Source: Candidatus Enterousia sp.
Lineage (GTDB): Bacteria > Pseudomonadota > Alphaproteobacteria > Rs-D84
Direction: 5' to 3'
Assembly (NCBI GenBank): GCA_045634865.1
Contig: JAZRBB010000003.1
Span: 203,082-267,081, forward strand
Length of the DNA stretch: 64,000 nucleotides
A program made the translations under genes and the position numbers. Below, piece by piece: positions 19,902 through 61,180 of the stretch. Numbering within the stretch: the stretch's first letter is position 1; the number at the start of each line of letters is the position of its first letter. Below the pieces are notes generated by a model. The model saw only the letters and a list, made by a program, of their open reading frames with translations. It did no database searches and was not told where the DNA came from.

Positions 19902-21332
19902 ATGAGATGGTATTCATTGTGTTTTTATTGTTGCTTTGTAACTGCTACAAGCAGTGCTTTGTGTGAAACTATAATAACAGTCAATGCAAATGAAATTCGC
20001 AATGTGTTTGAGCCATTGACACAAAACACAACATTATACAATTATGGAACAATAACTTCTGATATAATAACTAATGGTAATAATTTTGATGTTTATAATT
20101 ATGGCACGATTAGCGGAACAATTGATGCAGACAGTGGTTTTGTTAACCAACACATTGATTCGATTGACGCATTTCATAGCGTGACTTTGGATAGCGGTAA
20201 CGATTTATATATTTATATAAATGGTGTGCATGACATTACTTTAACAGATTTGATGAATCTGGGGAATGCAGAAAATTTTGATATTACTAATTCTTCAATT
20301 GTGATTGATGATTTGGTTGCGTGGAATAATTGGGGGCAATCGGCAGAATTAGACAGAACAAACACATTGATTTTTTCGAGTCCGAGTGTTGTGCAAGCCG
20401 GTGATGTCATAAATCATATCGGTGAAAACCTTAACATTTCTGTTGAAGGGTTAGATCCTGCTTATATACCAGAACTTTCGTCAAGTTATGGTTCGTGGAT
20501 TATAAATTTTGGTCCAAATCCTAATTATCCGTTGTCTAATGTGTTGAATAGTGTCAATAGCATTGAAGATAAAAATCGTATCAAGCACTTGTCGTATCAT
20601 TTTAATCCAAACATATTGATGAACCCAATTAAGACAATGAACAAGTTTATGATGTCAAATATATTGTCATATAAAAACTCTCTATACATCGGTTTTTCTG
20701 GTTCTTATGTTATATCTGATAAGACTGATGCATATGGATTTGATTTAAGTGTCAATGGGAAATATGATGATGTATATTTACGCGCAGCTTTCAATTTTCA
20801 CGATTTTAGTTATCAAGATGATTACAATAATTTTGATGGTTTGATGTATGGTTTTAATGTTGGCGCCAAAACATATTTTGATAATTTGTGGCTTGATGGA
20901 ACATTGGGTTTGTCGTTTATTGACTTTGATGCGGATAATATTTTGTATAACGATGAAACCAGAAACAATCCGTTTGGTATGGGTTTATATGGGACAGTAA
21001 ATTTAGGTTATGATTATGTTTTGACAACTGATTTGACTGTTTCGCCATTTGTTGGGCCATCGATTGCAACATATTGGGTATATGATATCAATGACACAGA
21101 TTATAATATTCGTGGCGGTGGCAAGGTTGAGTATTCTTTTGTTGTGGATAATATCAAATACGAATATAGCGGAATAGGCACAATCAGCGTCAACGGTGAT
21201 TTATACGGTACATTAAAAGTTGGCTTTGTGTCTGAAATAGATAATGCAGGGTTGGCACTTGGTTTTGATGTATTGAAAACAGACGAAGAAACTGGATATA
21301 AAATATCTGTCAGTGGCAATATCACTTTTTAA
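19902..21332 (+). CDS. Autotransporter-like outer-membrane protein (short Gly/Thr/Asn-rich passenger + beta-domain)
   Basis: 476 aa. Passenger repeats YNYGTITSDIITNGNNFDVYNYGTISGTIDAD. C-terminal region is rich in alternating aromatic residues and ends SGNITF, the terminal Phe typical of OMP/autotransporter barrels. N-terminal start uncertain. Confidence 0.45.
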   Translation: MRWYSLCFYCCFVTATSSALCETIITVNANEIRNVFEPLTQNTTLYNYGTITSDIITNGNNFDVYNYGTISGTIDADSGFVNQHIDSIDAFHSVTLDSGNDLYIYINGVHDITLTDLMNLGNAENFDITNSSIVIDDLVAWNNWGQSAELDRTNTLIFSSPSVVQAGDVINHIGENLNISVEGLDPAYIPELSSSYGSWIINFGPNPNYPLSNVLNSVNSIEDKNRIKHLSYHFNPNILMNPIKTMNKFMMSNILSYKNSLYIGFSGSYVISDKTDAYGFDLSVNGKYDDVYLRAAFNFHDFSYQDDYNNFDGLMYGFNVGAKTYFDNLWLDGTLGLSFIDFDADNILYNDETRNNPFGMGLYGTVNLGYDYVLTTDLTVSPFVGPSIATYWVYDINDTDYNIRGGGKVEYSFVVDNIKYEYSGIGTISVNGDLYGTLKVGFVSEIDNAGLALGFDVLKTDEETGYKISVSGNITF

Positions 21333-31701: not shown

Positions 31702-31730
31702 TTGCACAGATTCGGTCAAATTGTTATAAT
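31702..31730 (+). promoter_or_regulatory. Near-consensus sigma70 promoter (TTGCAC-17 nt-TATAAT) for the secretin operon
   Basis: TTGCAC at 31702-31707, a 17-nt spacer and TATAAT at 31725-31730. RBS AGGAAAGGA precedes ATG 31762. Confidence 0.55.
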
Positions 31731-31761
31731 TGAGTATATTATATCAAGGAAAGGAAAAAAT

Positions 31762-32652
31762 ATGTTCCATAGATTTTGCGTGTTTACGGCTATTGCTTGT
31801 TTGTCTGGTGTCGCATGGGGGGCTGAAAATTTGCCCCAGGTTGCTACTTCAGAGGTGTTTTATGATTCTGAACCTGCTGAATATGTGATGGAGGAGGCAG
31901 AGGTTGTTGCTCCTATGCCTGTTCGTCAAAAGGCTCCTGTGTGGCCATTGGCGGGCTCTGATGCAGATGTAAAATTGGAATGTGGTGACATGGGGTGTTC
32001 GGGTGAAGAATCGATGATTGTGACCAAGGTTGGTAATGGGCTGATTATGGAAAACAATATAATCACTCGTGGTACCGGTTGGTCTGGTGGTCCAGATATC
32101 GAAAATGGAATGATGATACCTGCTGGTTTTGATAATGAATGCGAAAATAATGCGGAAATGCCGTTAATGCGTCGTGAAATGTTGGAAGATGATGGTGGTT
32201 CGGTATTGTCTGTTTCGCGTAGTCCGCGTAAAAAATGTAATAAAAATGCTGATTCTTATGCTGTTTTTGCTGAACGTGCTGGATTCAAGGCTGAAAAATC
32301 TTGCAATAAAGATATGTCAGTTGGCGAAGGCGAAATAGATGTTTCTGTAAACTCAGACGAAAATAATGATGCAGAAGCGCCTGCTGTTATGCGTGATCAG
32401 GTTCGTTCTTGGGTCGTTGCCAGCGGTCAGACTTTGCGTCAGGTTTTACAATCTTGGTGTGATAAAGAAGGTTGGGATTTGGTTTGGACGACATCGCGTG
32501 AATATCCGATTGAGGCTAGCGCTGTATTCAAGGGACGTTTCGTTGATGTTGCGTCGGCTTTGATACGTAATTTTGAACGTGCAACACCAGTGCCTTATGC
32601 AAAATTTTATAAAGGGAATCGTGTGATAGTTGTTTCGACTTCGGAAGAATAA
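31762..32652 (+). CDS. Secreted protein with a C-terminal TcpQ/PilL-like domain (candidate secretin accessory factor or pilotin)
   Basis: Signal peptide MFHRFCVFTAIACLSGVAWGA. Acidic, Cys-containing middle region. The C-terminal block GQTLRQVLQSWCDKEGWDLVWTTSREYPIEASAVFKGRFVDVASALI resembles the TcpQ domain found in PilL and TcpQ. Sits immediately upstream of a lipoprotein secretin, as in tcpQ-tcpC. Start taken at MFHRF inside ORF 31702..32652. Confidence 0.4.
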   Translation: MFHRFCVFTAIACLSGVAWGAENLPQVATSEVFYDSEPAEYVMEEAEVVAPMPVRQKAPVWPLAGSDADVKLECGDMGCSGEESMIVTKVGNGLIMENNIITRGTGWSGGPDIENGMMIPAGFDNECENNAEMPLMRREMLEDDGGSVLSVSRSPRKKCNKNADSYAVFAERAGFKAEKSCNKDMSVGEGEIDVSVNSDENNDAEAPAVMRDQVRSWVVASGQTLRQVLQSWCDKEGWDLVWTTSREYPIEASAVFKGRFVDVASALIRNFERATPVPYAKFYKGNRVIVVSTSEE

Positions 32653-32686: not shown

Positions 32687-34291
32687 ATGAAAATGCGTTT
32701 AAATATGTTTTTAATAGGAACAGTATTCGCGGGATTGTTGGCAGGATGCACATTGCAAGAATCTGCCAAGGTATCTGCGTCTGTGGATCAGAATTTTGTA
32801 AAAGCATATGAAGCATTTGAAATGGCGAAAAATCCGCGCGCCAAGGTGGCTAGTGGTGATACAGTTTCTATGTCAGAGGGGGTTTGGTTGGGCAATAAAT
32901 CTACGGTTCTTGAACACAAAAACTCGTTGCCTGCAAAGTTCGAGACAGATTCGGGGATTACTATATTATTAAATGAACCTGTGACATTACAGGTGTTGGC
33001 AAATGATATAAATTCAATTACAGGAATTCCTGTAAAGATTGATAATCAGGTTGATGATGAAAAATTACGAAAGACTGTTGATGTTGCATATACTGGTAAG
33101 TTGTCTGGATTGTTATCTCAGATTGCTACAGATTTAGATTTGTTGTGGTATTATGATAAAGATTCAATTGTGTTCTATGAAACAGAAACGCGTACATATA
33201 CATTATATGCCTTGGGTACAGATGTATCGTATCAATCTTCTGTGCAAACGGATGATGGAAATCAGGTTTCTTTGGAATCAACCTTGAAAGAGTGGGACGA
33301 GGTGGAGGCGACAATTACTTCTATTGTTAATTCATCAAAGAATTCTCAATTTACAGTATCGCGCAGTTTGGGGACGATCACAGTGACTGCGTCACCATCT
33401 GTGCTAAATCGTGTTTCTGATTATATTGCAAAACAGAACAGACGTTTGTCACAACTTGTGACCATTGATGTTAAGGTTTTACAGGTATCTTTGTCTAACG
33501 AATCTGCATTTGGCTTGAATTTGGCTGCGGCAATCAATTCTGCGACAGGTCTGAACATTGTTGCAAATCCAAAAAATAATCTTTCTACGACCGAGGCTAG
33601 TTCTATGAATGTTGCGGTATTGTCTAATACTGTCGCGGAAGCGGTGACAGGCATTGAAGATATGTATACTGCTGATCAAATAAAAAATGGTTCCATGGCA
33701 AGGTTGGCCGGTACAAATGCTTTGATAGAGGCTTTGGCAAAGCAGGGCAAAGTATCGTTAGTGACAAATGTTGGGGTAACGACACGTAATAATCGTGTTG
33801 CCCCTGTGACAAATACCAGAACAACAGGATATATCAAGCGATTCGAATCCAGAACATTTACGACTGTGGAATCTAGTACTGTTGACCAAGATAATTTGGA
33901 AACTGGGTTTTCAATGCAGTTGTTGCCGAATATTTTGGAAAACGGCAAGATATTGTTGTTATTCAAAATGTCAATTCGTGAATTGTTAAAGATGTCGACA
34001 CAAACAATTGGTGCGGTGACATTGCAATTGCCAGAGGTTGAAGAGCGCTCGTTCATGCAGGAAGTTATTATGGAGTCTGGTCAAATGTTGGTTGTATCTG
34101 GGTTCGAGAAACAAAAGAACGATGATACACGTTATGGTTTGGGCGATCCAGACTTTATGGCATTGTCTGGTTCGCGTGAAACCGCTGCGTCACGTGAAGT
34201 GTTGGTTGTTATCTTGACGCCACAAGTTTTGGTCAGCCCGATGGATGCAGAGCGCAATATCCAGCAACATTGGGGCGCACCATTGAATTAA
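32687..34291 (+). CDS. Lipoprotein secretin of the type IVb-pilus class (BfpB/TcpC/PilN-like)
   Basis: Lipobox LLAGC-T. N0-like domain (ITILLNEPVTLQVLANDINSITGIPVKID). Secretin-domain blocks are present (FSMQLLPNILENGKILLLFKMS; FMQEVIMESGQMLVVSGFEK; C-terminal EVLVVILTPQVLV). The C-terminal loop YGLGDPDFMALSGS is non-canonical, as in the lipoprotein secretin subfamily. Confidence 0.7.
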   Translation: MKMRLNMFLIGTVFAGLLAGCTLQESAKVSASVDQNFVKAYEAFEMAKNPRAKVASGDTVSMSEGVWLGNKSTVLEHKNSLPAKFETDSGITILLNEPVTLQVLANDINSITGIPVKIDNQVDDEKLRKTVDVAYTGKLSGLLSQIATDLDLLWYYDKDSIVFYETETRTYTLYALGTDVSYQSSVQTDDGNQVSLESTLKEWDEVEATITSIVNSSKNSQFTVSRSLGTITVTASPSVLNRVSDYIAKQNRRLSQLVTIDVKVLQVSLSNESAFGLNLAAAINSATGLNIVANPKNNLSTTEASSMNVAVLSNTVAEAVTGIEDMYTADQIKNGSMARLAGTNALIEALAKQGKVSLVTNVGVTTRNNRVAPVTNTRTTGYIKRFESRTFTTVESSTVDQDNLETGFSMQLLPNILENGKILLLFKMSIRELLKMSTQTIGAVTLQLPEVEERSFMQEVIMESGQMLVVSGFEKQKNDDTRYGLGDPDFMALSGSRETAASREVLVVILTPQVLVSPMDAERNIQQHWGAPLN

Positions 34292-34391
34292 AGGCGATAA
34301 AAAAATAATTAGGTTTTATTTTCTAAGTGATATAATGTTATGCAAGAAAGAGAAATGAAAGGAGCAATAAAGTGCTGAAACCCGCAGAAAC

Positions 34392-34426
<35 letters not shown>

Positions 34427-34577
34427 TAGTTTTTGCCGAGCTTTTTTAGGCATAGTTTTTTCGTATATTTGTTGTCTTGGGACATCTTTTGCTGTTGAAA
34501 TTTTAGATTTAAATACTGCGTTACAAAATACATATCGTGCCTGTGTTGGTATCGATGATAAATTATCAGATTATAAA

Positions 34578-35384
34578 ATGTTGGCTGGGATAAATACAGG
34601 GGTCCAGGCTGTGGGAACAGTTGCTGGTGTTGGTGCAACTGCTGTCGGTATTGTAAAAGCATCAAAAGATAAAGAAATAGAAGAATATGAAAAGCTGATG
34701 GCAAAATTGAAAGAAAAGTTAGGTACACAACAAGAATCGAGTGAGTTGGAGAAAAACGAGTTTTATACAAAATTTATCGCACAATATAAACCAACAAATG
34801 CTGAAGATGCTAAAACAAAGCTTACATCACAAATGACACAAAAGACCAAAGAATCCAAAAAACTTGGGAATTGGCGAACTGGATTGATGGTTGGTGCTAC
34901 TGTGACCAATGTTGCAGGTGCTATATTGGCATCGCAAAGCGGTCAGAACACAGATTTACAAGTAATGGTAAAAAATTGTTTGGAAAGTATAGATACATTA
35001 AATCTGTCGATTGGTCAGGCACGTATAAATGGTGAAGATGTATCAGAAGCCAGAGACATCGCATCAGCGTGTGGCGAATACAGGAATGTTGATGTGTCTT
35101 CGATATCAAAACGTGCGACCGGTGCTATGGCTGCATCTATTGTGGGTACAACAACTGGATTTACGGGAACTGTGTTATCCGGTGTTGCTAATACAGATAA
35201 AATACGTAATGACAATACAGAGAGTGGTAAAAAGAAAGAAAAAGATTTGAATACAGCATCGAATGTGATGGCTGGTGCGACGACCGCGGCATCTGCTGTA
35301 TCAACAGTGTTTTCTGGAACACAAATTGCAGCGATAAAACGTGTTGCAAATGTAGCATCTAAGTGTGAGGGGGGATTGAAATGA
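34578..35384 (+). CDS. Secreted Ala/Gly/Thr-rich protein, paralog A; in this sequence the signal-peptide region upstream (34428-34577) is open in the same frame but has no start codon
   Basis: ORF-track ORF MLAGINTG... The in-frame upstream translation (..FLGIVFRIFGCLGTSFAVEILDLNTALQNTYRACVGIDDKLSDYK) aligns with the signal peptide and N-terminus of paralog B (43885). The only start-like signal is RBS AAAGGAG + GTG at 34372, in the +1 frame relative to the body, reading through (CA)15 to a stop at 34447. Four conserved Cys are shared with paralog B. Confidence 0.55.
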   Translation: MLAGINTGVQAVGTVAGVGATAVGIVKASKDKEIEEYEKLMAKLKEKLGTQQESSELEKNEFYTKFIAQYKPTNAEDAKTKLTSQMTQKTKESKKLGNWRTGLMVGATVTNVAGAILASQSGQNTDLQVMVKNCLESIDTLNLSIGQARINGEDVSEARDIASACGEYRNVDVSSISKRATGAMAASIVGTTTGFTGTVLSGVANTDKIRNDNTESGKKKEKDLNTASNVMAGATTAASAVSTVFSGTQIAAIKRVANVASKCEGGLK

Positions 35385-38300
35385 TGAAAAATATTATAGC
35401 AGGCTTGTTTTTAGTTTTTTATATTGTCCCTGGATTTTGTATTGATGCTTTTTATATGGACAATGTTGCCCCACGCCAAGCAATCGAAAACGCAATTCAT
35501 GATGAATATGTGGTTCGTGTCAGCGGTGATGCTGTACAAAAAGCAATAGAAACCATAACCCAGGATATTGGTGAAAGACTTGAATTAACACAGTTGTATA
35601 CTTCTTGGATGCAAGATGGTTCGCCATTGACTTTTGGCGCTTTGGGAAATATTTGTGATATTGCTTTCAAGGGAAACATCGATAAATGTCAGAGGTTCGC
35701 TAGTGCATTATTGAAAAACAAAGCATTGCGTCTGTATTCTGTGTGTGGTGCAGATAAAGGTAAAACTGGTGGAACAGAACGTTGTGTCGAAGATTTCTTT
35801 GCCAAGACAAAGGTGGATACGACTGCTGGACGCACTCTGGCATCAGAATATGTGCGTATTAAATATAACGATGCTTCTTTGGAATGTGATAAGAACGTAA
35901 AAATAAACAGGACTGGTAGTGATTATATGCGGTGTGTTTCGCAAAGTGCAAATAATGTTTTTTATGAATTTAAGTTTGATAGTTTGGCTGATGTTCATAT
36001 GGATACAAATCGTGAAGATGCGATTTTTGGCGCAATTTGCCGTTTACATGGGCTGGAATATGACAGAACAATGTTAAGTGGTTATGATAACCCCAGATGC
36101 AAAACACAAGACAAGAATATATGTGCGAAAGTAAATGAAACGCTGAAACCTTTTGGTTTTGAATCTAAGATTGGTGCTCAAAATTGGGGACCGGATTATG
36201 GTGCACAAATGACAAGTCCTGATTGCGTAATAAACGCATTATGCACAGCACGAAATAAAAAAGATTTGCACAGTGCTTTTGGATTGGATCCGTTTGAATT
36301 CCAAAAATCAGCAGTCCAAGTGAATCGTAATGAATATTTGGAAGATATGCTTGCCAATTATGTACAAAGTAAGGTTGGCAATATAACCAGTTTTGAATGT
36401 AATGCCACACATCAATGTATCTATACCGACGGTAAAAAGAGTGATGTTTTGGGTTGTAAAGTCAATGGCAAAGACGTTGATTTTGTGTTTAAAGATTTGA
36501 GTGAATGGAGCCGTTATCGCGATAACGCAGGGCGTCAGGTTATTCAGTGCAAGATTGTTGGTGGCGAATTTACTGGTCAAGATTGTGTATATTTGACGCA
36601 TGAGCAATGTGATAAGTTGGCAAAACAAACAATTCCAGGCTGTCCAGAATGTACAAATGTTGTATGGGATACCAAACATAATATATGCAAATTAAAAACA
36701 AATGAAATACTTAATGATATAGAAAAAGCCGAAAAAGTTGCTATGATGGCTGTGGGTTCTGCTGCTGCGGTTGCTACAAGTGTGGGTATTGCTTATGCTG
36801 CATATAAAACGGGTTCTGTGTTGATGTTAGTTCCTACTTTGTTGGCGGGGGCGAACGCTGTTGGTTCTGTTATGGAATTGGGTGCAACATTAAAAATATT
36901 GGGCGTTACAGAAGATTTTGCACGTGAATCACAAAATTGCAAGACCAGTGCTTGTGCAGATAATTTAGTAGAAAAATGGTTGCAACGTCTTTCTAACCTG
37001 AGGAGTGATTTATCAGAAGCAGAATATACTTTTGTTAACAAAGAATTGGCCAGATTGATAGGTTTGACGTCTGAACAGTTTGGAAAAAAGATGTTTACAA
37101 ATTTGGTAAAAAGATATACCACAGATAATACAGTTAAAAACGACATTTCGTCCAAGAAAGCGCGCAAAAAAATGGATGAAATGCTGAAATCACCAGATTT
37201 GTTAAGCGCAAATGCCAAGGGATTCTTTGACAGCGAAAGCTGGGAACCAGAACAGATTTGGCGTGCGGTTGGCGTTGGTTTGCAGATTGCATCAACATTG
37301 GGCAGTGTGGCGTATGGTTTCTGGGCTAATCATCAGGCTTATAAGGCATATGATGATGAAACAACACAAATGTTGCGTGATGCTTTGACAGATGGAAAGA
37401 ATAATCTTACACCAGAAGAACGTAGAGAAATAATCAAGTATTTAATGGAGGATGGTACACCAGTCAAAATTAATGATAATATCGAGATACCAGGCGATAT
37501 AAAGTTGGCTGCACAAGTTGCAAAACAAGACGGAACACTCACATCTATAACTGGAGAGACGAAGTATGTAGATATAAATGATTTGGATGATTATATGCGG
37601 GAGAAATATGGTTCCCAAGTATTTGTTCAATATGATAAAGATATGAAAGCAGTTTATACAGCTAACTTTGGGTATTATCAAGATGGTGCAGATTTTGTAG
37701 AAAGCGCATTGATACAAGAAGGTATCCCTTATAGTAGGCAAGGCAATGCCATAATAATTTTAGAAACAGATTTGGAAGCAATTGGTGTAGCAACGGTTGC
37801 TCCAGATGATCCGATGATAACGAAATTAGTAAAGGTTCATAAACCGTCAGTAGATGAATTACATGCTCAGGGTATAACTACTGAAGTTGCACTAAGTGAT
37901 TTTTTTAACGAAAGCAAAAAACAACGAGCTGAGGTAAGTCTTATTTTTGGAGATTCGATAGATAAGGTAGCAGTTAATGATTATGCAAAGAAAGTCAAAG
38001 ATGATGTAATAAATATTATTGCAAATAATGAAACGTTGTCTGCACTTGCGGTAAATTATGACAATTTATCAACAGATAAAAAAATGGATTTTATCAACGG
38101 TTTATTGTCAGAATATAATGCAGGTAAGGCTGTTTCCTGTGTAGACGGATATTGTGAACTTGCTAATTTAGCCCCCGGTGTTTTGGGGGAGCATTTGTCG
38201 GGTAGTGATAAAATTTATTTGTCATCCAAAGAGCTGGCTAACGCATCTTTGCCCGATGTTTTGGATGTTGCATTTCATGAAAATAATCATCGTCTTGATG

Positions 38301-38494
38301 CTATCGGGAAAGGTTTTCTGAACAATGAACAACGTAGAATTAGTAGCATTACTGGCGGGTTAAGTGGAACAAATATTGATGCATATTTGTCTGATTTTAC
38401 AGAGCAGGTATCGTATGCAATTAGTAACCAGTTTCAACAAAAGGGTTTTACTGAAGATTTAAATAAAGCAATTAAACGTGTGCAAGGCTTTTAA
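35381..38494 (+). CDS. Large (1037 aa) secreted/membrane-inserting Cys-rich protein, unknown function
   Basis: N-terminal signal-like segment. The first ~420 aa contain about 38 Cys. Central hydrophobic helical hairpins (VAMMAVGSAAAVATSVGIAYAAY; VLMLVPTLLAGANAVGSVMELGA; IWRAVGVGLQIASTLGSVAYGFWA). The ~400-aa C-terminal domain contains HENNH. Start overlaps the upstream stop (ATGA). Confidence 0.5.
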   Translation: MMKNIIAGLFLVFYIVPGFCIDAFYMDNVAPRQAIENAIHDEYVVRVSGDAVQKAIETITQDIGERLELTQLYTSWMQDGSPLTFGALGNICDIAFKGNIDKCQRFASALLKNKALRLYSVCGADKGKTGGTERCVEDFFAKTKVDTTAGRTLASEYVRIKYNDASLECDKNVKINRTGSDYMRCVSQSANNVFYEFKFDSLADVHMDTNREDAIFGAICRLHGLEYDRTMLSGYDNPRCKTQDKNICAKVNETLKPFGFESKIGAQNWGPDYGAQMTSPDCVINALCTARNKKDLHSAFGLDPFEFQKSAVQVNRNEYLEDMLANYVQSKVGNITSFECNATHQCIYTDGKKSDVLGCKVNGKDVDFVFKDLSEWSRYRDNAGRQVIQCKIVGGEFTGQDCVYLTHEQCDKLAKQTIPGCPECTNVVWDTKHNICKLKTNEILNDIEKAEKVAMMAVGSAAAVATSVGIAYAAYKTGSVLMLVPTLLAGANAVGSVMELGATLKILGVTEDFARESQNCKTSACADNLVEKWLQRLSNLRSDLSEAEYTFVNKELARLIGLTSEQFGKKMFTNLVKRYTTDNTVKNDISSKKARKKMDEMLKSPDLLSANAKGFFDSESWEPEQIWRAVGVGLQIASTLGSVAYGFWANHQAYKAYDDETTQMLRDALTDGKNNLTPEERREIIKYLMEDGTPVKINDNIEIPGDIKLAAQVAKQDGTLTSITGETKYVDINDLDDYMREKYGSQVFVQYDKDMKAVYTANFGYYQDGADFVESALIQEGIPYSRQGNAIIILETDLEAIGVATVAPDDPMITKLVKVHKPSVDELHAQGITTEVALSDFFNESKKQRAEVSLIFGDSIDKVAVNDYAKKVKDDVINIIANNETLSALAVNYDNLSTDKKMDFINGLLSEYNAGKAVSCVDGYCELANLAPGVLGEHLSGSDKIYLSSKELANASLPDVLDVAFHENNHRLDAIGKGFLNNEQRRISSITGGLSGTNIDAYLSDFTEQVSYAISNQFQQKGFTEDLNKAIKRVQGF

Positions 38495-39647: not shown

Positions 39648-40454
39648 ATGAAATATTTTGTTTCTGTGTTGGTTATTGCTATGTTCGGTTTTGGCGCAAA
39701 TGCCGCACAAAATGGGCGTCCGGCTATGGCAAAGAATATTATGTCTGCACCAAGGTATACTGCGTCTGTGAATCAGATATCTGGAAGTACAGCAAAGATT
39801 GGTGTAAAGACTGGTGCAAACACCGATGAAACAGCGCAACAAACAGATGAATCAGCGGAAGAGGCTGAAGAAGCAGCGGTTGTTGATATGCGCGAAGCAG
39901 AACGCAATGCATGTATCAATAATAATATCGGTGTTGGTAATACTTTTGTGTGGGCTTCTAAATACAGCGATACATCGAATTATGCAAATATGACCGAAGA
40001 TGCGGAGCATCCCGAAAATAATGTGTGTTTTGTGCGTGTAGAATTAAATTCTACGAACGAATCGCGTATAAAAGTATCTGACATTGAACCAAAGTATTTT
40101 GTGTGGGGCGAACCGATTAAATGTGGTGGCTGGGTTAGCAAGAAAGAAATGGAAAAACGTATATTAGAAGCCAGAAAAGGTGCACGTATTGGTGGTATTG
40201 TGGCCAGTACTGTTGGTGGTTTGGGACTTGGGGTCGGCGCCATGGAATTATTCGGTAACAGATTGATTGGTGGCAAGGTGGAAGGCCAAAAAGGTGTGGA
40301 TGAAAAAGAATTATACAAGGCACAGTTGGCCAAAGATGAAAATAAAGAATACATAGCTGACTTGAAGGTGATGGTGGAAGCGTGCCAAGATGGAACCAGT
40401 TATATTAGTGATTGTGACTTGTACGAAGAATTATATAGGTCGGTTGCTAAATAG
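39648..40454 (+). CDS. Secreted Cys-containing protein, unknown function
   Basis: Signal peptide MKYFVSVLVIAMFGFGANA. Acidic stretch, Gly-rich hydrophobic segment (IGGIVASTVGGLGLGVGAMELFG) and 6 Cys. Confidence 0.4.
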   Translation: MKYFVSVLVIAMFGFGANAAQNGRPAMAKNIMSAPRYTASVNQISGSTAKIGVKTGANTDETAQQTDESAEEAEEAAVVDMREAERNACINNNIGVGNTFVWASKYSDTSNYANMTEDAEHPENNVCFVRVELNSTNESRIKVSDIEPKYFVWGEPIKCGGWVSKKEMEKRILEARKGARIGGIVASTVGGLGLGVGAMELFGNRLIGGKVEGQKGVDEKELYKAQLAKDENKEYIADLKVMVEACQDGTSYISDCDLYEELYRSVAK

Positions 40455-40471
40455 TAGATATGGGGTGTAAG

Positions 40472-41059
40472 ATGAAAAAGTATGTTGTTTTGTTTTTAAT
40501 GTGTTTGCCAATGGTGTCATTTGGGGCGCCATCTGTGCGTGCCCTTGGAGCTGGTGCTGTTGTTGGTGCGTCTGGGGCGACAGCAAGTAAAATAACACCA
40601 GCAAAAGTAGGCAGTACACCGAGTACAAGTAGTGTCGCGCGTGTTGGTTCTTTGCGTGCAAAGGCTACTACGGTTGGTACCCCAAGTGTTGTTTCTGGTG
40701 CTACTGGACGTTTTCCGGTAATTTCTACGGCCAAGTTTTATAATACCACAGCGACACCGCGTCCAATTAGTTCTGTATCTAATACTTCCATTATAAATAC
40801 AGAAGAAAATTTGGATGCCCTTACACAAAGGGTTGAAAATATAGAAAATTTGCAAGGTAATACCGATGTTGTTAACACAGTAAAAAATGTGTCGAATTTG
40901 GAAGGTAGTACAAATATCGTTAATACCGTCAAAGATAACAAAGATAGTATAGAAGAATTGAACAAAAATGCAGATACTGTTTTAGTGTCGGGTTCAGGCA
41001 ATCCTTTTACCGGAAATCCACAAAATGAAAATCGTGCTTGGATTTGGGTTGAGAAATAG
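40472..41059 (+). CDS. Secreted Ala/Ser/Thr/Gly-rich surface protein with tandem 17-aa repeats
   Basis: Signal peptide MKKYVVLFLMCLPMVSFGA and a low-complexity AGAVVGASGATASK region. Two tandem repeats NLQGNTDVVNTVKNVS / NLEGSTNIVNTVKDNK. Confidence 0.4.
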   Translation: MKKYVVLFLMCLPMVSFGAPSVRALGAGAVVGASGATASKITPAKVGSTPSTSSVARVGSLRAKATTVGTPSVVSGATGRFPVISTAKFYNTTATPRPISSVSNTSIINTEENLDALTQRVENIENLQGNTDVVNTVKNVSNLEGSTNIVNTVKDNKDSIEELNKNADTVLVSGSGNPFTGNPQNENRAWIWVEK

Positions 41060-43738: not shown

Positions 43739-43767
43739 ACACACCCGCAAGCAGGCGGGTGTTTTTT
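43739..43767 (+). terminator. Rho-independent terminator after dnaA
   Basis: ACACCCGC-aagcag-GCGGGTGT hairpin followed by T6. Confidence 0.65.
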
Positions 43768-43779
43768 ACGATTTTTTCA

Positions 43780-43818
43780 GGTTCCCCGCCAGTGGCGGGG
43801 AACCTTTCTCGGTTCAAA
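43780..43818. repeat. GC-rich perfect palindrome GGTTCCCCGCC-agt-GGCGGGGAACC plus TTTCTCGGTTCA tail (REP-like dispersed repeat, copy 1)
   Basis: 11-bp perfect stem. Related copies occur at 60885-60901 and 61055-61077. The tail 12-mer TTTCTCGGTTCA recurs at 5678-5689. Confidence 0.8.
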
Positions 43819-43884
43819 AAAAAACATTTTGTTAAACATAAAAAATATGATAAAATACAACCTGATAAAAGGGAGCGAAAGGGT

Positions 43885-44820
43885 ATGAAAAAATTATCTT
43901 TTGTATTGTTGGCTTTGTTGACATGTCCATCATATGCAACGGTATATGATTTAGATGTCGCAATGAACAATGTTCGTAATGCATGCAGTGGTATAAATTC
44001 CAAAATGGACCATCTGAAATTGATGGCTGGTATAAATACCGGTATCAGCGCGGCGGGAACTGTGACTGGTGCTGTGGCACTTGGAACAGGTATTGCAAAG
44101 GCACAGACGGATGATGCGATTGAAACTATACAGAAAATGTATGAAAAATTTAAGCCCACAAAACCAGAAAACGCATCAAGCCAAGCTGATATTGATAGGG
44201 CACCGGAAAACTTCAAAAAAATATTAGAAAAGTATGCGCATAATATGAAAGATGCTGGCGATGTTGCTATTAAAGCAGCAGAACAAGAATCAAAAACATT
44301 GGGTAATGTTAGAACCGGTATGTTGGCTGCGAATACAGCAACCAGCGTTGCGGGTGCTGTGATTTCAAGTCAGAACAAAGTAAATGGTAGTATCAAGGAC
44401 GCAATTGATAACTGTATTTCTGCCACAGATGATTTGCGTGAGAGTATGATGCAGGCACGTCTTGATGGGTATGATACAATGGATGCAAAACGCATAGTAG
44501 ATGCGTGCAGTGAATATAAATTTGCGGATTTATCAAAGATAAATAAATTGGCAACTGGTTCAACAGTGACATCCAGTATAGGTGCTGTTGCAGGTGGAAT
44601 AGGAACAATAACTAGTGCTGTGGCAAATACAGATTCGACAAGAAACGATAACAGTAAAGAAGGTATAGAAAAAGAAAAGAATCTGAATACAGCATCGAAT
44701 GTATTGTCTGGTGTGACGACAGCGACATCGGCGGTATCAACAATATTAAACGGTGTTCAAATAGCAACGATAAAGAAAGTAGTATCTATATCCGAGAAAT
44801 GTGAAAAGGAGATACAATAA
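43885..44820 (+). CDS. Secreted Ala/Gly/Thr-rich protein, paralog B of the 34578 gene
   Basis: Signal peptide MKKLSFVLLALLTCPSYA. AGINTGISAAGTVTGAVALGTGIAKAQ core. C-terminal NTDSTRNDNSKEGIEKEKNLNTASNVLSGVTTATSAVSTIL...KCEKE is collinear with paralog A, including 4 conserved Cys. Confidence 0.6.
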   Translation: MKKLSFVLLALLTCPSYATVYDLDVAMNNVRNACSGINSKMDHLKLMAGINTGISAAGTVTGAVALGTGIAKAQTDDAIETIQKMYEKFKPTKPENASSQADIDRAPENFKKILEKYAHNMKDAGDVAIKAAEQESKTLGNVRTGMLAANTATSVAGAVISSQNKVNGSIKDAIDNCISATDDLRESMMQARLDGYDTMDAKRIVDACSEYKFADLSKINKLATGSTVTSSIGAVAGGIGTITSAVANTDSTRNDNSKEGIEKEKNLNTASNVLSGVTTATSAVSTILNGVQIATIKKVVSISEKCEKEIQ

Positions 44821-45434
44821 TGAAAAAGTTTTTAATTGCATTTTTGTTGTCTTGTATGTGCTTGATGCCTCTGGTTGCAAAGGCTTCAAATGAATCAGAA
44901 ATTTGTTATGAATATTTAGGTAAAGATGGAGGCGGGTTATTCGGTATTATGTCTAAATATTTGTCCGATGGTAACGGGCATTGGACAGAAAACGGAGAGT
45001 CAGCGTTTGATTTTTTTGAGACTAAAATGACAGAGGGTAAAGAATCTCGGGGTGTTGCTAGTATAACATGTAGCGACCTTCTGGATGTTTGTATCGAGGC
45101 AAAATGGGTAGATAAAGCTGGTAAGGCTAAATGTAGCGCTTTTGCTGGAGATTTGTATAAAGCATGGACTCTCGGAAAAAAAGATTCAAATAAGAATGGT
45201 AAAAAATCTTCGGATATACTAAAAAGCGCTATTGAAACGTATTGTGAAAACCAAGGCGGTGTCGATTTTATAATGGAACAATGTGAAAATTATAAAAGAG
45301 ATGTATCCAGACCAGAGGTTTTAAACTGGCAACTATATTATAGTACGTATGCTCAGTTTAACGATTGTGCACGATTATATGGTTATGCTTTTACAGCGTC
45401 TAAAAAGGGTGGGTGTCACAAAATTAAAAAATAA
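44820..45434 (+). CDS. Secreted Cys-rich protein (204 aa), translationally coupled to paralog B
   Basis: The stop and start codons overlap (TAATG). Signal peptide MKKFLIAFLLSCMCLMPLVAKA. 10 Cys. Confidence 0.45.
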   Translation: MKKFLIAFLLSCMCLMPLVAKASNESEICYEYLGKDGGGLFGIMSKYLSDGNGHWTENGESAFDFFETKMTEGKESRGVASITCSDLLDVCIEAKWVDKAGKAKCSAFAGDLYKAWTLGKKDSNKNGKKSSDILKSAIETYCENQGGVDFIMEQCENYKRDVSRPEVLNWQLYYSTYAQFNDCARLYGYAFTASKKGGCHKIKK

Positions 45435-45435
45435 A

Positions 45436-45458
45436 AACAACCGCCCGTTTGGGCGGTT
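45436..45458. terminator. Bidirectional terminator hairpin
   Basis: AACCGCCC-gttt-GGGCGGTT followed by TGTTTT. Confidence 0.55.
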
Positions 45459-45487
45459 TGTTTTATCGTATCTTGGAACCAGTCTTT

Positions 45488-46000
45488 TTATCTAACGTTT
45501 GTGTAGTAGTATTTAATTACTTCGCATGCCATGCTTTTGTTGAAAGTACCTTTTTTGTATACAATTTCGTCGACTTCGCTCGCGTCTTCATCACATTGGA
45601 TACGAATAATATCAGCATCTTGCTTAGATTGTGCATCTTTTTCAGTAGCAATGTAATAAACAGCAGAAACACAACCTCTGGCAAAATTTGGATATAAAAA
45701 CGTTGGATATTCTTCTTGTTTTTTTGTGGTAATTGCTTGTGGTTTTTTGGAATTAATGTAACATGTTTTGTAATCTTGGTCACCATATTGCTCTTGTAAA
45801 ATCACTTTGTTATTTTTGTCGTATATTTCGTGGACCGACAAAATATCACCCGCTTGTTCGATAATATCTTTATTTTGTTTTTGTTGTGAGGTTGCGCAGC
45901 TAGAGCCAGCAATTGTCATAACAATCAAATTTGTGCCTGCTATGAATTTTTTGCCAGATGAGATAATAGTTTTAAGTAGTTTTTTGGCATCTTTTTTCAT
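45488..46000 (-). CDS. Lipoprotein, unknown function
   Basis: 170 aa. Lipobox-like IAGSSC after a hydrophobic segment. 6 Cys. Confidence 0.4.
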   Translation of the reverse strand: MKKDAKKLLKTIISSGKKFIAGTNLIVMTIAGSSCATSQQKQNKDIIEQAGDILSVHEIYDKNNKVILQEQYGDQDYKTCYINSKKPQAITTKKQEEYPTFLYPNFARGCVSAVYYIATEKDAQSKQDADIIRIQCDEDASEVDEIVYKKGTFNKSMACEVIKYYYTNVR

Positions 46001-46102
46001 GTGTTTCCCTTTTTATTTTGCAATTTTTATTCTTTTGCTAGTTATAAATGTATCACAAAAAATACAGTTGTCTAGTATAGGAGTGGATTTTTTTGTTTTG
46101 CC

Positions 46103-47242
46103 TTAAAACCAGCCTTTTTTATCTGATTTGATTCCAGCGAATTCGTTTAAGGCTTTCTTTTGCTTTTCTGTCAATTTCTTTGGAATTACAATTCCGATTT
46201 CAATGTACAAATCACCAAAGCCACCGCGACCGTTTGGCATACCATGCGAACGAATTCTTAATCTTTCGCCAACCTGGGTTCCCGATGGGATTTTCACCGA
46301 TAACTTTTTATCATCGATGGTTTCAATTTCTATTTCACCACCCATTGCCAATGTTGGAAAGTCTATGTCCATATGCATCAGCAAATCATCACCCACGCGT
46401 TCAAATTTTTTGTCTGGCTTGATACGTATATCCAAATAGAAATCGCCAGCGCGACCACCGTTTGGACCCGCTTCGCCCATGCCGGCCATACGTAATCTGG
46501 CACCATCTTGGATACCTGCGGGGATTTTTACATCCAATGTTCTTTGTTTATTGACGGTTCCTGTGCCACCGCATGCAGTACACTTTTTATCAATCTTGCG
46601 CCCCAAGCCATTGCAGTCTGGACATGGTGTTTCAACCGCGAAGAAACCCTGGCGTGCATGAACATAACCGCTACCACCACAGGTTGAACATTTTGGGGCA
46701 GGTTTGCCGTCTGCTGTGCCGTTACCATCACATTTTTCACATTTAACTGCGCTGGAAAACTTTACTGTATGGGTTGTGCCGAAAAAGGCATCTTTCAGAG
46801 ATATTACGACTTCATCCAATAAATCGCGTCCGCTGGGTTGTTTCGCCGCGCCACGACCAGGTTCACCAAAGCCACCACCAAAACCAAAACCACGCATGGC
46901 TTCGCGTAAAATGTCTTCCATTCCGCCCATGCCTTCGCCACCACCCATATTAAAGTGAAATGCGCTATTGCCGAATGGATTGCCACCAAAGCCGTTGCCT
47001 GCGCTGGCACCATTGCCACCTGCAAACGCAGCATCGCCAAATCTGTCGTATGCAGCGCGCTTTTGTGGATCTTTCAATATATCAAAAGCGTTGTTAACTT
47101 CCTTGAACTTTTCTTCGGCAGATTTGTCGCCTGGGTTTTTATCGGGGTGATATTTCATAACCAATTTGTGATAGGCTTTTTTAATGTCTGCATCACTGGC
47201 GTCTTTGGCAACGCCTAATACTTCATATGGATTTTTGTTCAT
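46103..47242 (-). CDS. dnaJ: Molecular chaperone DnaJ
   Basis: J-domain with HPD ([10 protein letters not shown]), a Gly-rich region and four CxxCxGxG zinc-finger repeats. No dnaK adjacent. Confidence 0.9.
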
Positions 47243-55051: not shown

Positions 55052-55190
55052 TTTTGTAAATTTACCGTTTTTGTCAAATGGATATATAAATAATACTAAG
55101 GATATTATTTACTCTTGCACCGAATCGGTGTTTTTTGATAAACTGCCATTAAATAATAAGAAAAAACAAAAAAAGAACAGGAGAAGTATT

Positions 55191-56303
55191 ATGGAATTTT
55201 CAGTGTTTCGTCAGGTTTTAATTCGTGCGCTGGGGCATATGCAATCTATCGTTGAAAAGCGCGCAACTTTGCCGATTTTGATGAATGTAAAGATAGAGGT
55301 TTCAGACGATTTAATTTTGTCTGCAACAAATGTTGATTTGGAATTGGTTGAACATGTGGCTGCTGATATCACTTTGTCTGGTAAAACAACTGTGCCAGTT
55401 CAGATGTTGTATGACATTGTTCGTAAATTGCCTGACGATGCAGAAATCAGTTTCAAGCAATCTGGTGATCAATTGGTCGTGTCCAGCGGTCGTGCTGTTT
55501 TCCATTTGCCAACTTTGCCGGCAGAAAACTTCCCAGCAATGGCGGGTGGCAATTTAAGCACTAAATTCCAGATGACAACTGGTGATTTGGCGCATTTGAT
55601 AAATCAAACCAAATTTGCAATTCCAACTGATGATGTTCGTTATCATTTGGGGGGTATTTATTTCCATATATCTGAAGATACCGGCAAATTGACTGCGGTT
55701 GCAACTGATGCCCAGCGTATGGCTTTGTGCGCTATGAAAGCGCCAAGTGGTAGCAACGGCATGCCGTCTGTGATTTTGCCGAGACGTGTTATCGGTGAAT
55801 TATCTAAATTGTTGGAAGATGCAACAGTAGACGATGTCATGATTGAATTGTCTGATACCAAGGCACGTTTCACAATTGGTTCTGCAATATTGACCAGCAA
55901 ATTGGTTGATGCCCAGTATCCAAATTATCGTGTTGTTATTCCAAAGGGCAACGACAAGATTGCGATTTTGGACAGAAAGCAATTTATAAACGCTGTGGAT
56001 TTGGTATCGGTTGCCAGTGTAGACAAGACTAAATCTGTTCAATTGTCATTTTCTATGAATAAATTGGTTATAAATGCGTCCAGTCCTGATGCTGGAACCG
56101 CAACCCAGGAATTAGACATAGAATATAATGGTGATGCGACATTTACTATCAATTTCAATGTGAAATTCTTGTTGGATGTTGCGGGTCAGGTCGATGGGGA
56201 TAAATTCCAGATGGAAATGCAGGAATCTTTGTCGCCAACCATTATCAAATCTACTGATAAAAACACAGACGCATTGTTTGTATTAATGCCTATGCGCATG
56301 TAA
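55191..56303 (+). CDS. dnaN: DNA polymerase III beta sliding clamp
   Basis: About 370 aa from MEFSVFRQVLIRALGHMQSIVEKRATLPIL. Three-domain clamp; C-terminal LSPTIIKSTDKNTDALFVLMPMRM. Confidence 0.85.
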   Translation: MEFSVFRQVLIRALGHMQSIVEKRATLPILMNVKIEVSDDLILSATNVDLELVEHVAADITLSGKTTVPVQMLYDIVRKLPDDAEISFKQSGDQLVVSSGRAVFHLPTLPAENFPAMAGGNLSTKFQMTTGDLAHLINQTKFAIPTDDVRYHLGGIYFHISEDTGKLTAVATDAQRMALCAMKAPSGSNGMPSVILPRRVIGELSKLLEDATVDDVMIELSDTKARFTIGSAILTSKLVDAQYPNYRVVIPKGNDKIAILDRKQFINAVDLVSVASVDKTKSVQLSFSMNKLVINASSPDAGTATQELDIEYNGDATFTINFNVKFLLDVAGQVDGDKFQMEMQESLSPTIIKSTDKNTDALFVLMPMRM

Positions 56304-60744: not shown

Positions 60745-60884
60745 ACACTAACTCCTATACATCAGTCTTTACAAGTGACTATAACATTGTATTTACAATT
60801 GTCAATACATTTGTGTATATTGTTGTAATGGCGGAAATATAGACGTTTGTGTTGACTGGTGTATTGTTTTGGCTGGTGCAAATT

Positions 60885-61077
60885 CCCCGCCCGTGGCGGG
60901 GTGGATTGCGATAGCAAGACGGGGAGGGTAATCTGGATTATTCGGAATAATGAACGTTTGGAATAAAAATTTATTTGAACCCTCCCTGCCATTCTGGCAC
61001 CCCTCGGGTGGGGGGGAATTTAGACTGGTCTCAGTAAGAACCAATTTCCCGCCCCAGGCGGGGAACCAGTATCTGCC
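60885..61077. repeat. Composite GC-rich palindromic element (nested inverted repeats) in the tolB upstream intergenic region
   Basis: CCCCGCC-cgt-GGCGGGG (60885-60901). GGGGAGGGT...ACCCTCCC (60922-60988) enclosing the palindrome TTATTCGGAATAA. CCCC-tcgggt-GGGG (61001-61014). TTCCCGCCCC-agg-CGGGGAACC (61055-61077). The arms are related to the 43780 palindrome. Confidence 0.75.
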
Positions 61078-61180
61078 TAGAATAAATTCAGTGTGCGTTA
61101 ACATTTTGATTTTTTTATGGTTGCGTGGTAAAATTGTTGCAGTATTATATTTGATATATAACAAAGGAAAGGATTTTTGT

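Follow-up and report, generated by a model that had tools for sequence, protein, structure and literature searches.

Small accessory proteins that are encoded directly upstream of a polymorphic toxin, and that form a pre-secretion or delivery complex with its conserved N-terminal domain, include the Lap proteins, helical targeting partners that precede the LXG toxins of type VII secretion systems (T7SS), and SitB, which accompanies the lipoprotein toxin SitA in Myxococcus. For Sec-dependent polymorphic toxins, the only such example described in the literature that we consulted is the MafA/MafB pair of Neisseria, in which the toxin MafB depends for its export across the outer membrane on MafA, an outer-membrane protein of 34 kDa whose gene lies just upstream (PMC7738311). 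Here we analyze a gene pair that follows dnaA in a Candidatus Enterousia-like bacterium of the order Rs-D84, whose genomes are smaller than 1 Mb and whose members, according to a published proposal, live as obligate symbionts or parasites and take metabolites from other cells (PMC12306168). The pair, A2 and B2, lies in a stretch of 64,000 nucleotides (positions 203,082 to 267,081 of contig JAZRBB010000003.1; hereafter, the window), which also holds a paralogous pair, A1 and B1, at 34.5 kb.

At nearly every such module in related genomes the first gene (A) is retained, and the second codes for a Cys-rich secreted protein; the body of this protein, most of all at the C-terminal end, is exchanged from strain to strain and among paralogous modules. 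Our preferred reading, to which we assign a probability of roughly 0.45, is that A2 and B2 together make up one of the copies of a polymorphic effector module, Sec-dependent and specific to the lineage, in Rs-D84 and Enterousia-like bacteria.

A retained first gene and an exchanged second gene

The module at dnaA is made up of one promoter-like site, two overlapping open reading frames (ORFs) and one terminator, and it lies among the following features:

43741-43770, plus strand: intrinsic terminator of dnaA (stem ACACCCGC/GCGGGTGT at 43741-43762 and a T run; terminator scan)
43766-43821: strain-private insertion of 56 bp, holding a palindrome at 43780-43804
43829-43856, plus strand: promoter-like site of the module (TTGTTA, 16 nt, TG-TAAAAT; consensus scan)
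43885-44820, plus strand: A2, 311 amino acids (aa), with a signal peptide, four charge-free helices, four invariant Cys and a hypervariable segment at residues 76-132
44820-45434, plus strand: B2, 204 aa, the secreted Cys-rich partner, coupled to A2 through TAATG
44836-46100: variable block (partner body and convergent gene), which differs among close relatives
45439-45458: bidirectional intrinsic terminator (both-strand scan), between B2 and the convergent gene
45488-46000, minus strand: convergent gene for an orphan, membrane-anchored or lipoprotein-like protein of 170 aa with five Cys, in the variable block

The stop codon of A2 and the start codon of B2 overlap in TAATG (44818-44822), with AAGGAG at 44806-44811, 8 nt before the B2 start, and B2 begins with a signal-peptide-like N-terminus (MKKFLIAFLLSCMCLMPLVAKA, predicted cleavage before S) and contains ten Cys, eight of which follow the predicted cleavage site; the coupling of A2 to a secreted Cys-rich partner, as described in an earlier note on this DNA, is thereby confirmed. 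The promoter block ATATGATAAAAT is near-invariant in five genomes and the ribosome-binding site is conserved too; that the block functions as a promoter is presumed, because the scan gave no more promoter-like sites than it gave in shuffled sequences.

This arrangement holds across the family. The survey covered 84 loci from about 70 assemblies, which hold 88 A genes; for 85 of these genes, an ORF of 80 aa or more lies within 400 bp downstream (below, L-numbers designate the relative loci that we fetched and P-numbers the A-family or partner proteins from databases). Most of these ORFs overlap the stop codon of A (ATGA or TAATG); a few begin 1-2 nt past it, and three begin at a distance of 35-173 nt, two of these three being fragments of a disrupted A gene; in L001 and L050, one A gene precedes two partners. 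The partner ORFs have a signal-peptide-like N-terminus, a Cys content of 1.4-5.3% and lengths of 165-1813 aa, and by single linkage they fall into 11 similarity clusters (61 B1-like, five trypsin-like and five in the B2 cluster, the rest being smaller). The earlier proposal of a two-gene module in a polymorphic family with exchangeable partners is thus well supported by the survey.

How the partners differ is best seen in the B1-like proteins, which have a Cys-rich N-terminal part, an uncharged hairpin and variable ends. Residues 100-560 of B1 are common to 37-47 of 48 homologous partners, and residues 600-1037 to 4-6 of them; over the first 711 residues B1 is 80% identical to P0273, beyond which the two show no similarity. 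An HExxH motif occurs near the C-terminus of 17 large partners (in homologs of the C-terminal part of B1 it is conserved as HENNH), seven short partners (357-496 aa) have a Tlde1_dom/YkuD-like C-terminus, which in four of the seven scores at or above the Pfam cut-off, and five partners possess a trypsin-like domain. As an aside, residues 1183-1237 of P0279, a B1-like protein from another genome, match the J-domain of DnaJ at 24 bits, below the cut-off; if real, this domain would hint at a eukaryotic or chaperone-hijacking target.

B2 itself gives just 2 hits among 5.8 billion proteins and has a single relative there: P0122 (53% identity), which is the partner in L085 and L086. Its N-domain (about residues 39-115) is shared with other partners and is followed, at the C-terminus, by a Cys domain of about 65 aa, which recurs, within all of the fetched loci, in L005, L007, L085 and L086 only. 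B2, P0122 and the L007 partner have about their first 130 residues in common, and together with the L005 partner they form a set of mosaics around the common Cys domain. The break between B1 and P0273, the coverage profile of B1 and these mosaics all display the division into conserved N-terminal and unrelated C-terminal parts that characterizes polymorphic toxins.

The earlier note had called for an alignment of the two partners, and here the outcome depends on the method: BLAST detects no similarity between B1 and B2, but a comparison of the profiles of the two groups, with signal peptides removed, gives an hhalign probability of 92% (E 8e-7) over a region with two conserved Cys and a C..F...L motif. 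Because of this profile-profile match, we conclude that B2 and B1 do have one short N-terminal domain in common; it is also matched in the groups of 534-766-aa and 288-aa partners, and not in the trypsin group. Scans of B2, B1 and the convergent 170-aa protein against Pfam, NCBIfam and PHROG gave nothing above threshold, and single-sequence searches of PDB with B1 and B2 were empty.

That A2 is a full-length paralog of A1, with the same four Cys and core blocks, is borne out by BLASTP (43% identity over 270 aa, E 2e-64) and by tblastn against the longer reading frame of A1 (41.6% over 310 aa, E 2e-65, collinear). The four Cys (C34, C177, C208 and C306 in A2 numbering) are invariant in alignments of 29 sequences, A1 included, and of 101 sequences, and the AGINTG..GT and NTD..R..N..KEK.LNTASNV blocks are present family-wide. 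Four charge-free stretches of 19-25 residues each (48-70, 144-162, 225-249 and 270-293) are likewise conserved across the 101 sequences; they consist of 60-70% Gly, Ala, Ser and Thr with about 28% Ile, Leu, Val, Met and Phe, and contain small-xxx-small motifs. Between the first two lies the hypervariable segment (residues 76-132), in which A2 is 19-22% identical to P0011, P0008 or P0013, with flanks at 89-95%. A lipobox-like Cys occurs in some close relatives only. The subfamilies of A track the class of the partner, and the most divergent A proteins are those of trypsin-type modules.

A first AlphaFold2 model of A2, built with 29 sequences, was too weak (predicted local distance difference test, pLDDT, of 55) and was redone with 101 sequences. 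The resulting model is all-helical (pLDDT 79.4; predicted template modelling score, pTM, 0.60), with long helices at 37-89, 108-163, 216-247 and 258-310 and a head at 168-213; confidence is highest in the Cys-bearing parts (91-97) and lowest in the charge-free parts (67-78). If the four charge-free stretches span a membrane, all four Cys would lie on one side, and residues 71-143 and the NTD.TRNDN loop would lie on the opposite side. A also has two putative disulfides and a disulfide-type head.

A2 has 863 relatives among the 5.8 billion proteins, none of which bears a functional name, and a profile search recovers 461 clusters at 50% identity. No Pfam, NCBIfam or PHROG family matched A2 above threshold (matches to CD20, at 20 bits, and to Phasin are at chance level), and a profile search of PDB with the A family found no match. 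From 366 A-family loci in GTDB species genomes we kept 80, nearly all titled Candidatus Enterousia, 'Alphaproteobacteria bacterium' or gut or rumen metagenome-assembled genomes; assemblies often contain at least two such loci, and tandem modules occur in L024, L034, L045 and L050. The A family is large, unnamed and clade-restricted, and has so far been found almost entirely in tiny-genome gut alphaproteobacteria.

The dnaA site and the sister copy

If positions 43780-45458 had been inserted as a unit between dnaA and dnaJ, as the earlier note proposed, close relatives ought to show the site without the module. Instead, four close relatives keep the order dnaA, A, partner, dnaJ:

L001-L003 (A 79% identical to A2): dnaA, A, 273-aa partner, dnaJ
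L004 (A 78% identical): dnaA, A, 534-aa partner, convergent 205-aa gene, dnaJ
L005 (A 78% identical): dnaA, A, 706-aa partner, convergent 227-aa gene, dnaJ
L085 and L086 (A 87% identical): dnaA, A, 277-aa B2-like partner, dnaJ (dnaJ confirmed in L086; the contig ends in L085)

Homology at the DNA level is unbroken from rpsT through dnaA and A2 to position 44835, which is some 15 nt inside B2. In blastn comparisons with L001, L004 and L005 it ends at 44833-44835 and restarts at 46025-46103 (the dnaJ stop is at 46102), and in between just the 32-nt terminator is shared. Because homology is continuous through A2, we regard A2 as part of the syntenic core of the clade and 44836-46100 as the variable block: across the genomes compared, the partner at dnaA is 204, 277, 273, 534 or 706 aa long, while A stays 78-87% identical. 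The claim that the module displaced a dnaA-dnaN adjacency also fails. dnaN lies at 55071-56303, about 11 kb downstream, with parE, uvrC, asmA and many other genes in between, as it does in relatives; to our knowledge, adjacency of dnaA and dnaN is not the rule in Alphaproteobacteria. For this clade, a position beside dnaA is a matter of ordinary conserved synteny, and it tells nothing about replication.

The palindrome itself (GGTTCCCCGCC-AGT-GGCGGGGAACC) is real, as are the dnaA terminator and the bidirectional terminator, each recovered by exact matching or by scans. It is exact at 43780-43804, where shuffles lead one to expect 0 matches, and as single-stranded DNA it would form a hairpin of -15.3 kcal/mol (z = -6.6). 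It is not a cassette border: it sits inside the private 56-bp insertion, which alignment shows to be missing at the same position in L085, L001, L004 and L005, and the stem and T run of the dnaA terminator are kept in these four relatives. Its description as REP-like (i.e., resembling repetitive extragenic palindromes) is weak, since the 64 kb hold a single exact copy, besides which there are two looser cores (60886 and 61048); the exact pattern occurs in 13 of 241 million metagenome records, as a single copy in each, which is uninformative.

We also note a GC-rich, hairpin-dense intergenic stretch upstream of tolB (60870-61080; the genome is 38% GC), which contains CCCCGCCCGTGGCGGGG, a long-range GGGAGGG...CCCTCCC pair and CCCGCCCCAGGCGGGGAACC, and whose hairpin cores resemble the palindrome at 43780. 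An Rfam search of 60.9-61.1 kb returned no family match, and the stretch may be an RNA or a cluster of REP-like elements.

These results make it highly improbable that the module is a recent mobile cassette (43.78-45.46 kb), bounded by the palindrome and the terminator and splitting dnaA from dnaN. The palindrome does lie in a private insertion, and in the more distant L060 the dnaA site is occupied by a different type of module (A 56% identical to A1 and 41% to A2, with a B1-like partner of 1065 aa); but in four relatives without the palindrome the synteny of A2 and its promoter is kept, dnaN is equally distant in those relatives, the GC content of the module (0.39) is like that of its surroundings, and neither ORF reading nor family scans found an integrase, direct repeats or a phage or plasmid signal. 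The notion of an insertion site retains some merit at greater evolutionary distance, where both sites act as module slots: besides the change at dnaA in L060, the site after the secretin (see below) is empty in L004, L005 and L060, holds A with two trypsin-like proteins in L001, and holds another module in L067.

Within the variable block, the 32 nt of the bidirectional terminator are identical in L004 and inverted in L005, despite differing flanking genes. The convergent 170-aa gene has no homolog in any fetched locus; its position is taken by unrelated genes of 205-227 aa in L004, L005 and L006 and by none in L001 and L086. We considered it as a candidate immunity gene for B2, and this was weakened by L086, the closest B2-like module, which has no such gene.

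The sister copy and the genes directly upstream of it are arranged as follows:

31702-32652 and 32687-34291, plus strand: TcpQ-like protein and secretin, directly upstream of A1 (Pfam TcpQ 3e-18, Secretin 4e-13)
34372-35384, plus strand: A1, paralog of A2, out of frame as sequenced behind (AC)15 at 34394-34423
35381-38494, plus strand: B1, 1037 aa, overlapping A1 by ATGA, with a conserved N-terminal part to about residue 560 and HENNH at 966

Read from the GTG at 34372, the loss of one AC unit or the gain of two restores an ORF of 336-338 aa with a signal peptide, and because B1 is coupled to A1, the two would switch together. No simple-sequence repeat tract was found in A2, which agrees with the earlier view that one copy is phase-variable and the other fixed. 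In B1, an uncharged Gly/Ala/Val hairpin at 455-510 is conserved in B1-like proteins and the C-terminal part is swapped; homology between A and this hairpin was rejected (hhalign probability 9%). The secretin gene is followed by a module of the family in the window, in L001 and in L067, and the TcpQ-secretin pair is a possible outer-membrane conduit. The pair stands alone: among the window ORFs scanned there were no further genes of type II secretion systems or type IV pili, those near the secretin being housekeeping genes only, and type IV pili have been reported for another lineage, not for Rs-D84 (PMC12306168). Such an orphan secretin in a genome smaller than 1 Mb needs a function, and dprA lies 7 kb off.

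A third A paralog, P0011, is encoded beyond the window on this NCBI contig (284,687 bp). It is 92% identical to A2 at both ends and 19% identical in residues 76-132, a pattern that points to gene conversion of the flanks or to the swapping of an internal cassette.

The conserved position of A2 among core genes, a predicted topology that places all four Cys on one side, and the presence of YkuD-type and protease domains among the partners could each fit a housekeeping envelope pair, in which A would be a scaffold in the cytoplasmic membrane, with four transmembrane helices and its head in the periplasm, and would serve cell-wall and protein-processing enzymes of the periplasm such as L,D-transpeptidases and proteases. 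We judge this improbable: partners are replaced by unrelated proteins between strains whose A proteins are 78-87% identical, B2 is a near-orphan, phase variation and multi-copy C-terminal swaps are unusual for housekeeping genes, and a hypervariable cytoplasmic loop would be odd.

Elsewhere in the window there are further secreted or possibly surface-exposed proteins. Two adjacent genes between plsY and dprA (39648-41059) encode secreted proteins of 268 and 199 aa without family match, the second of which evolves much faster (58-65% identity in relatives whose neighbouring genes exceed 90%), and a 476-aa protein (19902-21332), with a weak match to the autotransporter beta-domain (26.8 bits, just above the cut-off), is possibly another surface protein.

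What the module may do

As an effector module, the pair might operate as follows, a scheme that we infer from anatomy and analogy only. Both A and its partner would be exported by Sec and oxidised in the periplasm. A would put its four charge-free, glycine-zipper-like helices into a membrane, most likely the outer membrane or cell surface, with the Cys-stabilised head toward the periplasm and the hypervariable segment outward; it would bind the conserved N-domain of its cognate partner and mediate the export, surface display or delivery of that partner. The large partners would be three-part toxins or enzymes, in which a Cys-rich N-terminal part is joined through a hydrophobic hairpin to an HExxH, Tlde1/YkuD-like or trypsin-like region at the C-terminus, and would act on neighbouring cells. 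B2 would be a minimal partner, in which the N-domain is joined to the small C-terminal Cys domain.

Several observations weigh against this scheme. The HExxH regions matched no Pfam family and the Tlde1/YkuD scores are near threshold; moreover, L,D-transpeptidases and proteases can be housekeeping enzymes. B2 has no recognisable enzymatic domain in Pfam, NCBIfam and PDB searches and no hydrophobic hairpin. Within 1.5 kb downstream of more than 70 partners we found no recurrent small ORF on the same strand that might be an immunity gene, and a convergent small gene is lacking both in the closest relative with a B2-like partner (L086) and in L001. The charge-free helices of A are just moderately hydrophobic (Kyte-Doolittle 1.0-1.35) and could form the core of an oligomer instead of spanning a membrane. 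A Foldseek search of PDB with the A2 model gave no significant fold match (best E 0.016, template modelling score, TM, at most 0.29, to generic long helices), and no A homolog of known function is among the database matches.

Another possibility is a binary pore-forming toxin: A might be secreted and insert its glycine-zipper helices into the membrane of a target cell, forming a pore or translocon for the partner in the manner of A-B toxins or bi-component alpha pore-forming toxins, and would not be an export factor of the producer. A signal peptide together with weakly hydrophobic, small-residue helices would permit a soluble intermediate, the model is a long helical bundle, the large partners have a hydrophobic hairpin of their own, and the hypervariable segment of A would also fit. 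ClyA-family toxins (MakA, AhlB, SmhB and HblL1) do appear among the Foldseek matches, but these are non-significant (E 0.6-1.4, TM 0.16-0.25); the lack of immunity genes in the downstream regions and the single A gene before two partners in L001 and L050 also speak against such a binary toxin, which we consider unlikely.

Absent immunity genes are less awkward for a variable surface antigen or adhesin pair, in which A would anchor the Cys-rich partner for attachment to a host or partner cell, variation would arise from arms races with immunity, phages or receptors, and the enzyme domains would scavenge nutrients. The phase-variable sister copy A1, the hypervariable segment of A and the Cys-rich, repeated N-terminal parts of the partners agree with this, as does the lifestyle of an organism that lacks standard transporters and has been proposed to live off other cells (PMC12306168). 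Yet C-terminal swaps with sharp borders, and ends of the Tlde1-like, HExxH or trypsin-like kind, are expected of toxins or enzymes more than of adhesins, and Pfam scans of A and the partners revealed neither adhesin-type repeats nor known adhesin families; we regard an adhesin pair as quite unlikely.

Returning to the effector module, a more ambitious and doubtful extension is that the A family constitutes an undescribed Sec-dependent route of export or delivery, in which an oligomeric, all-helical glycine-zipper protein, possibly together with the TcpQ-secretin pair, displays or injects strain-specific toxins and enzymes, with which the Rs-D84 gut bacteria, given their reduced genomes, would attack neighbouring cells or feed on them; the hypervariable segment of A and the swapped ends of the partners would then be two faces of one arms race. 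Rs-D84 and Candidatus Enterousia are widespread in animal and human guts, and no mechanism of their interaction with other cells is known (PMC12306168). A multi-copy, partly phase-variable module that is kept in tiny genomes, and whose partners have ends resembling peptidases and peptidoglycan enzymes, is a concrete candidate for such machinery. If A does mediate export or delivery, it would represent a new type of accessory for Sec-dependent polymorphic toxin systems, and the family also supplies a mining rule for new effector domains: look for the ORF that overlaps the stop codon of an A-family gene.

Comparison with described systems

Tlde1 is an antibacterial effector of type VI secretion systems (T6SS) with an L,D-transpeptidase fold (PMC9638812), and it resembles the C-terminus of the seven short partners; B2 and B1 have no such domain, the scores are close to the Pfam threshold, and delivery here is not by a T6SS. 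The ClyA-family alpha pore-forming toxins (XaxAB/YaxAB, AhlABC, MakA) resemble the module in their adjacent genes, in their long helical bundles of about 300-400 aa and in their small-residue or hydrophobic insertion helices, but Foldseek relates them to the A2 model with E 0.6-1.4 and TM at most 0.25 and, in our module, the partner is a variable Cys-rich protein and not a paralogous helical one.

With polymorphic toxins at large (contact-dependent inhibition, Rhs and LXG systems; PMC4436062), the partners have in common a conserved N-terminal trafficking part, sharp breakpoints, unrelated C-termini in close strains and, in some partners, putative toxin-type domains such as Tlde1-like domains and peptidases. 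They differ in that no link to type V secretion, T6SS or T7SS is seen here, export beginning with a Sec signal peptide; adjacent immunity genes were not found for A-family partners, and many partners, B2 included, have no recognisable toxin domain. The Lap proteins and SitB match the module in having a conserved small accessory gene directly upstream of the polymorphic toxin, and differ in secretion route, organism and fold, a comparison made by description only.

Correspondence is closest in organization to MafA/MafB(/MafI), in which an accessory of roughly 31-34 kDa likewise precedes a toxin with a Sec signal, a conserved N-domain and a polymorphic C-terminus (PMC7738311; PMC4287609), several modules occur per genome (here, two in the window and P0011), and accessory and toxin come in cognate pairs. 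The two differ in several ways. There is no sequence relationship, A matching no family, and DUF1020, the N-domain of MafB, was not found in Pfam scans of B2, B1 and more than 60 partners. MafA is a lipoprotein whose prediction is mixed alpha/beta, whereas the A model is all-helical, with two putative disulfides and four helices that are free of charge; there is a hypervariable segment in A itself, and neither a MafI-like immunity gene nor orphan C-terminal cassettes in an array were seen here. We therefore rejected membership in the MafA/MafB family, given the missing DUF1020, the lack of similarity to MafA, the other predicted fold class and the missing immunity genes. By analogy, the module is similar to MafA/MafB in its logic and is not homologous to it, and it is best described as one copy, at a conserved position, of a two-gene polymorphic secreted module that is restricted to this clade and had not been described before.

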